The notes beneath the pieces are model-generated. The model saw nothing but the letters and a program-made list of their open reading frames with translations, was not told the origin of the DNA and did not search any database. From NCBI RefSeq assembly GCF_030384885.1, contig NZ_CP128613.1: a stretch of DNA of 64,000 nucleotides, one strand, 5' to 3'. Below, in pieces: positions 53,326 through 54,285 of this stretch. Source of the DNA: Escherichia coli (GTDB lineage Bacteria; Pseudomonadota; Gammaproteobacteria; Enterobacterales; Enterobacteriaceae). The translations under genes were made by a program, and so were the position numbers. How positions within the stretch are numbered: the first letter of the stretch is position 1; the number at the start of each line of letters is the position of its first letter.

Positions 53326-54285
53326 TTAATAACAGTTCGGAATATCAGCATCAGTGAGTTGGGTTGTCGCCAGCACAATCTCACGTTCAAAGCCCTGTTC
53401 CAGCATGCGCAAGGCAATTTTAATGGCTTGTTCATGCATACCTTCTACTTTGCCTTTCTGCAAACCCTCCAATTTCCCCTCCTGCCAACCTTCAATTTTA
53501 CCTTCCTGCCAGCCAATTTGGTGTCCTTCCTGCCGTAGCCGTTCAGCAATAGTCATCAATCTCTCCTTTTGTAGTGGTGAACGTTCGGCAATCTCCTCAA
53601 TAAAACGGGTGAAACGGGAGGTATCGCCGCATTGCAGCAGATAATTAAACAGCGTTTGTAGCTGGCTGTCATTAGTGAAGCCTCTAACCAAAAGCGTGGT
53701 GATCCTGTCGACCATACCGATTAAATCGCGGTCGCGAATATGCTTTTGAATCAGTTCAAGCAGAGCTATACGCCGATGTTGCATGATCTCATCGTCAGGC
53801 ACGATGGTGATATCCACCAACGGAAAAGCTTCGGTGTACAACTGCCGGGCAAGTTGCGGATCGTCAAACTCATCCAGCCAGTTAAGTGAGTATGGGTAGG
53901 GCGAGGTTTCGCCGTGATAAAACAGCAACGGCACCACCAGCGGGACTCTGTCATAGCCTTTGTCCAGGTGACGCTGCATGGCGGCAGTGGCATAGCGCAT
54001 TAGCCGAAAAGCCATATTCTTTTCTGCAGAGCTTTGATGTTCAATCACGCAGTAGATATAGCCGTTACCGTCGCTGGTTTCCACGGACCACAAAACATCC
54101 GAGTAGTAAGCGCGTAAACTTTTTTCAATAAAGCTGGTGGGTTCCAGGCGTAAGGTTTGCAGGTTGCAAAGTTTACGCAGTGGCTCCGGTAGATGTATTT
54201 CGAGAAAATCCCGCGCGGTTTCGGGCGAGAACATAAAGGTTTTAAACACCGCATCATGCGGGGAGGAGGTTGTTGATTCGGTCAT
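53326..54285 (-). CDS. rpnB: Rpn-family recombination-promoting nuclease (PD-(D/E)xK, YhgA-like) RpnB/YfaD
   Basis: 319-aa ORF; N-terminal nuclease-like region and repetitive C-terminus ([17 protein letters not shown]); internal in-frame ATG at 53556 begins the same segment that is duplicated as ypaA. Confidence 0.8.

Follow-up and report, generated by a model that had tools for sequence, protein, structure and literature searches.

A strain-variable array of four-residue repeats in Escherichia coli rpnE and its tandem copy ypaA, a probable pairing element of the Rpn toxin-antitoxin family

Rpn systems consist of a toxic nuclease, RpnL, and a short protein, RpnS, which is produced from an internal start and blocks RpnL (Zhong et al., PNAS 2023, PMC10400941). 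The number of four-residue ('dodecamer') repeats varies among strains, in every E. coli RpnS and RpnSs protein as well as in distant phyla, and determines which RpnL and RpnS can pair; the insertions start 8-20 residues after the S start, within the extended first helix through which the protein dimerises (PMC10400941). The addition of one repeat to RpnC_S or RpnC_L alone abolishes neutralisation, while its addition to both restores it. In that work, the toxin and antitoxin tests covered RpnA, RpnB, RpnC and RpnP2, and the repeat-number test covered RpnC with a single additional unit (PMC10400941). As for rpnE, the RpnE_S protein was detected by tagging in strain MG1655, where ypaA, which corresponds to rpnE_Ss, is expressed as well (PMC10400941). 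RpnE was the only K-12 paralogue whose overexpression gave no phenotype in tests of toxicity, SOS induction and recombination (PMC5350276); the construct used in K-12 would have co-expressed RpnE_S, so that it leaves unsettled whether RpnE_L is a live toxin. The RefSeq entry for RpnE in MG1655 carries the label 'inactive'. A literature search found no later paper on Rpn repeats.

The locus analysed here lies in a 64,000-nt stretch of E. coli DNA (64 kb), referred to below as the window. The gene of interest, located on the minus strand at positions 53326..54285, specifies a 319-residue protein (RpnE_L) of the Rpn/YhgA-like PD-(D/E)XK nuclease type. An earlier note, made from the sequence alone, had named it rpnB; the gene is in fact rpnE (yfaD), and the annotation has been corrected to this name. 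Its whole product matched the NCBIfam equivalog NF007418 with 707.8 bits (cut-off, 583) and TIGR01784 with 173.8 bits, and rpnE is the RefSeq name in most genomes carrying an identical or near-identical gene. The synteny also agrees: rpnE lies between glpC (54479-55744, minus strand) and ypaA followed by rhmA (yfaU; 52251-53099, plus strand), and the K-12 orthologue at the same position is rpnE/yfaD, while rpnB corresponds to yfcI, at a separate locus (nomenclature of Kingston et al., PMC5350276). Precomputed Pfam assignments list PF27070 on all homologues. No second Rpn paralogue was found within the 64-kb window. Across the rpnE/ypaA locus, E. coli 2013C-4282 is 100% identical to the window.

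Gene ypaA (RpnE_Ss; 53140..53313, minus strand; 57 residues) is an in-frame tandem copy of the RpnE_S module, from which it has diverged in its tail, as indicated by the open reading frame, its alignment to rpnE and its match to profile positions 244-308 of NF007418. RefSeq labels ypaA a pseudogene. Despite being flagged as a pseudogene fragment, ypaA is an intact S-module gene with a variable array of its own. A Pfam match of ypaA to RepB_primase_C fell below the threshold and was disregarded. Between the convergent ypaA and rhmA genes there is a G+C-rich palindromic hairpin (53106..53132) that resembles a terminator on the basis of a consensus match only.

The N-terminal region of RpnE_L (residues 8-209; 53659..54264, minus strand) forms a Transposase_31 / PD-(D/E)XK nuclease domain (PF04754, 293.7 bits, E = 8.6e-88). 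Residues D11, D63, E82, Q84 and R94 are retained in it, as is the PDDEI motif; all of these were invariant in an alignment of 37 homologues and correspond to positions tested functionally in RpnA, which is killed by mutation of D11, D63, E82 or Q84 (PMC5350276). Further downstream, a Shine-Dalgarno sequence, AAGGAG, could be read within the gene (53563..53568, minus strand) 6 nt 5′ of an in-frame ATG (53556-53554), which specifies M244 of RpnE_L. The frame starting there, RpnE_S (53326..53556, minus strand; 76 residues), ends at the stop codon of RpnE_L and is a putative intragenic antitoxin comprising a predicted C-terminal three-helix domain, as judged from the sequence and from a match to the PDB entry 7TH0. 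This internal AAGGAG-N6-ATG agrees with the internal-initiation architecture described for rpn genes (PMC10400941). No sigma-70-like promoter was detected within the gene by a simple scan. Gene ypaA is preceded by the same AAGGAG box and ATG as RpnE_S; sequence and alignment place the box (53320..53325, minus strand) directly next to the rpnE stop codon (TAA, 53326-53328). The rpnE-ypaA junction keeps the frame of the parental QKERLM. When JGI metagenome contigs were scanned for an exact match to the pattern joining the rpnE stop to the ypaA start, none was obtained.

The array of repeats occupies positions 53440..53523 of the minus strand, that is, residues 255-282 of RpnE_L and 12-39 of RpnE_S, so that it begins 11 residues after the internal start. 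It was delimited with TRF, which reported a 24-nt unit in 3.0 copies at 53440-53511, together with a self-identity analysis and a scan for glycines in phase. A tandem repeat had been placed at this site by the earlier note, and the peptide then quoted is indeed encoded at 53440-53532 on the minus strand. Its period, however, is not 15 bp as had been proposed, since the identity of the DNA to itself at a shift of 15 nt is at chance level (27-29%; codon-shuffle p = 0.63). The unit is 12 nt, or four residues, and there are seven of them rather than 'about four'. Each unit has the form xxxG and is closed by a glycine; together with G254, this places eight glycines in phase. Along the array, units of the type [W/L]Q[E/K/Q]G alternate with units of the type K[I/L/V]EG. 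Within a type, units have 8-10 of their 12 nt in common, and between types 4-6. The alternation of two 12-nt unit types gives the DNA a superperiod of 24 nt: self-identity reached 65-68% at a shift of 24 nt, a value attained by none of 20,000 codon shuffles and by only 5 of the 9,131 84-nt segments of the window, and was 39% at a shift of 12 nt (codon-shuffle p = 0.09). When all six frames of the 64-kb window were inspected, the rpnE array was the sole run of at least six glycines spaced by four. The repetition in rpnE is not due to chance.

Starting at its Shine-Dalgarno sequence, ypaA can be aligned with the 3′ part of rpnE, except that exactly 60 bp, equivalent to five units, are missing. 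The two units that remain, HQIG and WQEG (53257..53280, minus strand), were identified by alignment and translation. The repeats had been described as absent from ypaA, where a single unit was said to be present; most of the array is missing from this copy, as the 60-bp gap indicates, but two units persist and not one.

To assess variation, the 1.2-kb locus was matched in 5,420 of the 5,426 complete E. coli genomes; 24 loci were retrieved and their arrays read, and evenly spaced samples of 60 genomes were taken from the 5,420, ambiguous rows being resolved through the retrieved loci. All length differences of the locus in the samples were multiples of 12 nt. In the 24 retrieved loci, rpnE genes followed by ypaA had 2, 3, 5, 7, 8 or 10 units, single-copy rpnE genes with a ypaA-type tail had 2, 4 or 7, and the ypaA arrays had 2, 3, 4, 6 or 8. 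Overall, the rpnE array of complete E. coli genomes comprises 2, 3, 4, 5, 7, 8 or 10 units. Among 60 genomes, the array following the nuclease domain had 2 units in ∼34, 7 units in ∼9, 10 units in ∼7, 4 units in ∼3 (O157:H7), 3 units in ∼2, and 5 or 8 units in ∼1 each; three genomes of this tally had no assigned count. The 7-unit allele of the window is therefore a minority allele, present in ∼15% of the 60-genome sample. The ypaA gene was carried by about 33 of the 60 genomes. Its array had 3 units in ∼19 genomes and 6 units in 8, other lengths (2, 4 or 8) being less frequent; in about 45% of the sample the second copy has been lost or fused. Deletion and fusion variants of the locus also exist (proteins P0002, P0011 and P0014). 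One of them, P0002, is recorded in the databases as a read-through rpnE-ypaA fusion of 361 residues with 2+2 units, which is consistent with the in-frame junction described above. At the corresponding site, homologues from Citrobacter and Salmonella have 2-9 glycines in phase, and all 45 arrays examined were in frame. The proposal that the repeat number is variable is thus borne out, with 2-10 units in rpnE and 2-8 in ypaA across E. coli; copy number was compared over strains and between the two copies, and invariance was found in neither comparison.

How the number of units changes could be followed in a few alleles. The variability had been suggested to reflect expansion and contraction, and both the 12-nt multiples that separate the alleles and a pair of nearly identical loci support this. 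Over 1,685 nt, a single mismatch and a single 24-nt gap separate the two loci (L007 and L008), the gap falling in the ypaA array; the RpnE proteins they encode are identical. Removal of one KLEG-LQEG di-unit from the 8-unit array gives the 6-unit array. A contraction from 8 to 6 units could have occurred by deletion between 17-nt perfect direct repeats with no extra substitutions, while expansion in the reverse direction, from 6 to 8 units, needs two additional substitutions. The 5-unit rpnE allele likewise equals the 7-unit allele minus KIEG-WQEG. Differences of a single unit occur too (2 versus 3, 3 versus 4), for which the shared GAAGGT microhomology suffices. As far as the alleles can tell, the data appear to fit slippage and unequal recombination among imperfect repeats equally well. 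Where the arrays are long, that of ypaA resembles an internally deleted version of the neighbouring rpnE array: ypaA arrays of 6-8 units have 3-5 mismatches to the rpnE array of their own strain, compared with 8-10 to the average foreign one. Concerted evolution of the two arrays is weakly indicated by these figures, short arrays being uninformative and the lineages non-independent. Zhong et al. left open the mode of dodecamer expansion and contraction; the steps of 12 and 24 nt, the superperiod formed by the two unit types, and the recent 24-nt contraction bear on this question.

All 21 of the E. coli genomes sampled with both copies present had different numbers of units in rpnE and ypaA, in at least 10 distinct combinations (for example 7/2 in the window and 2/3 in K-12). 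This does not amount to a rule that the two numbers are never equal, since only ∼0.6 equal pairs would be expected among 10 combinations, the lineages are non-independent and the 2+2 fusion P0002 exists; the trend is not significant. Still, the mismatch in all sampled genomes raises the question of what ypaA does. Should the equal-number rule of RpnC hold here, the RpnE_L of the window (7 units) would be poorly matched by YpaA (2 units). One could imagine that ypaA is deliberately kept out of register with the resident RpnE_L and is not a spare cognate antitoxin, serving perhaps as an orthogonal S module against incoming non-self Rpn toxins, or as a silent donor cassette that allows rpnE to switch length by gene conversion; we regard this as a long shot.

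The region containing the array had been viewed as a C-terminal linker. The available structure of the S module, 7TH0, is that of RpnA_S (49 residues), which has no repeats. When compared with RpnE_S by phmmer, 7TH0 aligned to residues 1-13 and 38-72, although weakly (E = 0.15); since these segments flank the array on both sides, the array would be an insertion within helix 1 and not a linker. Foldseek searches of the PDB returned 7TH0 as the sole match (TMt 0.72, with a weak E of 3.1). Two other PDB matches were discarded as spurious: the only one to full-length RpnE was flagellar, and a designed PPR protein, which gave repeated weak matches, came ahead of 7TH0 when the S peptide was used as query. 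In the AlphaFold model of the full-length monomer (mean pLDDT 62), a single helix spans residues 236-295, with pLDDT <50 over the array. When two copies of RpnE_S were modelled, joined by an artificial 40-residue Gly/Ser linker and with a matched alignment, each copy folded into three helices, and a continuous helix was predicted over residues 3-53 with pLDDT values of 93-98 over the array. DSSP assigned a continuous helix over the array in both models. The models support the view that the array is a helix stabilised by pairing, the geometry of this pairing being a matter of inference. On a canonical alpha-helix, a periodicity of 4.0 residues would drift by ∼40 degrees per unit, so that a straight, in-register contact over seven units would be non-trivial.

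Taken together, the feature is very probably a hypervariable array of four-residue (12-nt) repeats of the Rpn toxin-antitoxin family, present in both rpnE and ypaA, with a function that is proposed by analogy with its paralogues. According to this proposal, rpnE would yield two proteins from one frame, the RpnE_L nuclease and RpnE_S, the latter from the internal Shine-Dalgarno sequence and ATG at M244. The array would lengthen helix 1 of the three-helix RpnE_S domain, the helix that forms the dimer interface in the RpnA_S structure. With a glycine at every fourth residue beside one hydrophobic residue, each unit could contribute to a soluble GxxxG-type surface for helix-helix packing, and the number of units may set the length and register of this surface, and thereby which S pairs with and silences which L. 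Because L and S share codons, their array lengths would always change together. This would force the toxin-antitoxin interface to co-evolve, and would make copy number a natural 'barcode' of pairing specificity, in a compact case of hypervariation within a toxin-antitoxin pair of the bacterial defence type. Shifts of 12 or 24 nt in copy number might arise by replication slippage or by unequal recombination between imperfect direct repeats, and exchange with ypaA, which lies at a distance of 243 bp, might be a further source of change. That the rules established for RpnA and RpnC (the toxin and antitoxin roles and the equal repeat number) apply to RpnE is inferred from paralogy, and diversification may have been driven by phage or by the avoidance of cross-talk between paralogues.

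A simpler explanation would be that the array is a neutral in-frame minisatellite, unstable and functionally irrelevant, within a decaying and inactive paralogue, its length polymorphism being a product of slippage only. The behaviour of RpnE in the K-12 assays, in which it was inactive (PMC5350276), could be explained in this way, as could the RefSeq pseudogene label on ypaA, the deletion and fusion variants P0002, P0011 and P0014, and the loss or fusion of the second copy in ∼45% of the sampled genomes; moreover, slippage by 12 nt keeps the frame without any selection. The substitutions within the array point the other way. When alleles of equal length were compared, the polymorphic codons comprised 29 with synonymous changes only and 9 with amino acid changes, while random single-base changes in the array would be synonymous 18% of the time. 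In addition, the phase of the glycines and the hydrophobic positions have been kept even though the DNA of the units has diverged (39% identity at a shift of 12 nt). Purifying selection on the unit sequence is shown by these data, and a purely neutral minisatellite is argued against by the synonymous bias and by the retention of the glycine phase and hydrophobic positions. The occurrence of the array at the same helix position across genera, the intact catalytic residues, and the finding that repeat number matters for RpnC (PMC10400941) also speak against neutrality, which is quite improbable as a full account of the array.

If the array is functional, it could still act in ways other than partner choice. 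As a molecular ruler, the length of the helix would set the spacing or rotation of HTH-like lobes (or of a lobe relative to the nuclease) in an Rpn oligomer, and thereby the spacing of the DNA target. As modelled, the array forms a long helix that links the compact C-terminal lobe of S to its conserved N-terminal segment; Zhong et al. drew a parallel to EcoR124I/II and noted that HHpred relates RpnS to HTH motifs (PMC10400941), and Kingston et al. raised the speculation that DNA preference depends on the variable tail (PMC5350276). However, in vitro RpnA is hardly, if at all, sequence-specific (PMC5350276), RpnA_S dimerises and inhibits even though it lacks repeats, and the swap of one additional repeat in RpnC reads antitoxin pairing directly (PMC10400941); a role as a ruler is therefore unlikely. 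The reading of the array as a flexible linker at the C-terminus that tunes nuclease activity by its length, in line with the linker originally suggested, would account for a region in which one residue in four is glycine, and for its pLDDT of <50 in the monomeric full-length model. It is highly improbable given that DSSP assigned a helix to the array in both models, that the pLDDT rose to 93-98 with a second copy, and that the array maps, on alignment to the 7TH0 crystal structure, to a point within helix 1; nor is it typical for a linker to have such a regular, conserved arrangement of hydrophobic, charged and glycine residues. A helical surface whose unit number governs the pairing of S with L remains the preferred reading.

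Several known systems bear comparison with the rpnE array. Phase-variable contingency loci are similar in that a heritable and rapid change in repeat copy number affects a gene exposed to phage or host conflict. Unlike frame-shifting phase-variable simple-sequence repeats, the rpnE units are 12 nt long, imperfect and always in frame, and they modulate protein length instead of turning expression on and off; with 39% and 65% identity at shifts of 12 and 24 nt, and 45 of 45 arrays in frame, classification as a frame-shifting repeat was rejected. The AxxxG(xxxG)m xxxA segments of FliH/YscL proteins (Trost and Moore 2009, PMC2674601) consist of soluble xxxG units rich in Glu, Gln and Lys, are predicted to form helices that dimerise by helix-helix contact, and vary widely among homologues, with m = 0-12. 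Nevertheless, the RpnE array scored only 20-31 bits against the NCBIfam FliH models, whose cut-offs are 180-293 (the best score being 31.2 versus 293, over the array region only), and the likeness is one of motif and not of homology. FliH repeat numbers differ between species, while those of rpnE differ between strains of one species, and FliH is a regulator of the type III ATPase and not part of a toxin-antitoxin system. Long runs of the GxxxG type are also said to serve as a partner-specific dimerisation module in the deca-GX3 motifs of Yae1-Lto1, which reportedly are eukaryotic, have a fixed repeat number and have a function unrelated to that of Rpn proteins.

A further parallel is provided by the TAEL repeats of HsdS in the type IC enzymes EcoR124I/II, in which the number of a 12-nt, four-residue helical repeat alters the specificity of a defence nuclease. 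The TAEL number changes by unequal recombination or slippage and sets the spacing of the DNA target (N6 versus N7), the repeats acting as a coiled-coil spacer of the specificity subunit. The TAEL repeats thus act on DNA spacing, whereas the documented effect of Rpn repeats is on protein-protein pairing. Zhong et al. themselves likened the dodecamers to the TAEL repeats (PMC10400941).

The Rpn_L/Rpn_S system (PMC10400941, 7TH0) is not merely similar to the locus described here but the same thing: both belong to the PF04754/TIGR01784 family, which has five paralogues in K-12, rpnE among them. The locus shares with it the internal Shine-Dalgarno sequence and ATG, the position of the array 8-20 residues after the S start and, as predicted for RpnE, in helix 1, its strain-variable number, the composition of the unit (one hydrophobic residue, charged residues and a glycine), and a downstream duplicate S gene (ypaA = rpnE_Ss). 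The phenomenon is already known from Zhong et al. (2023), and the present analysis adds no new kind of system to that established then. Beyond the main text of PMC10400941 stand the 7-unit allele, the 24-nt superperiod of alternating unit types, the mismatch in count between rpnE and ypaA, and the synonymous bias; along with the corrected gene name and period, the population frequencies and the near-isogenic 24-nt contraction, these are small and slightly new additions to the described Rpn system.

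The small tandem duplicate ypaA (53140–53313, minus strand) follows the Rpn nuclease gene rpnE (53326–54285, minus strand) so closely that its Shine-Dalgarno sequence immediately adjoins the rpnE stop codon TAA (53320–53328). At the position of this TAA, the parental RpnE_S module has CAA (Q240); the duplication is therefore in frame, the stop codon occupying the site of the parental glutamine codon. A read-through fusion of rpnE and ypaA exists in P0002, a 361-aa database protein represented by 10 E. coli member sequences from NCBI, and carries 2 + 2 of the four-residue repeat units. 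RefSeq/PGAP treats ypaA in some cases as a pseudogene, with the remark 'incomplete; missing N-terminus', and in others calls it a 'hypothetical protein', both among the 24 E. coli loci fetched (L001–L024) and at 53140–53313. In every locus examined, the window included, its Shine-Dalgarno sequence and ATG were intact and a frame of 57–81 aa was open. Downstream, between the convergent genes ypaA and rhmA (yfaU), lies a G+C-rich palindromic hairpin with a 10-bp stem (53106–53132), which is terminator-like on the plus strand and has a weak T tract on the minus strand.

When the two repeat arrays were compared within loci L001–L024, the number of units in rpnE differed from that in ypaA in all 21 genomes containing both, in 10 distinct combinations, a mismatch that is not significant on a sample of 21 genomes since only ∼0.6 equal combinations were expected. 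The long ypaA arrays (6–8 units; L007, L008, L018, L019, L021 and L023) looked like their own genome's rpnE array with an internal deletion, showing 3–5 nt mismatches, whereas their match to foreign rpnE arrays was poorer (mean 8–10 mismatches). This likeness at the sequence level hints at exchange between the neighbouring arrays or, alternatively, at their common descent.

A single-copy rpnE with a C-terminal tail of the ypaA type (…EADLAANNH) was present in ∼45% of the complete genomes sampled, and also in L009–L011; the O157:H7 strains, whose array has 4 units, are of this kind. Such a form fits either a duplicate that has been fused or lost, or an ancestral, unduplicated state. In two further RpnE variants, P0011 and P0014 (each a singleton from ENA assemblies), an internal deletion that starts after about residue 176 or 206 fuses the nuclease domain straight to the repeat array, the RpnS start being deleted; these could be true pseudogenes or assembly artefacts.

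Across RpnE residues 205–287 (∼53425–53673, minus strand), a stretch that contains the array, the FliH equivalog models of NCBIfam gave sub-threshold scores of 20–31 bits. These scores are due to a GxxxG-repeat motif present in both proteins and do not reflect homology. On all homologues, the precomputed Pfam matches included PF04754 and PF27070.1, the latter probably representing the Rpn C-terminal/RpnS domain.
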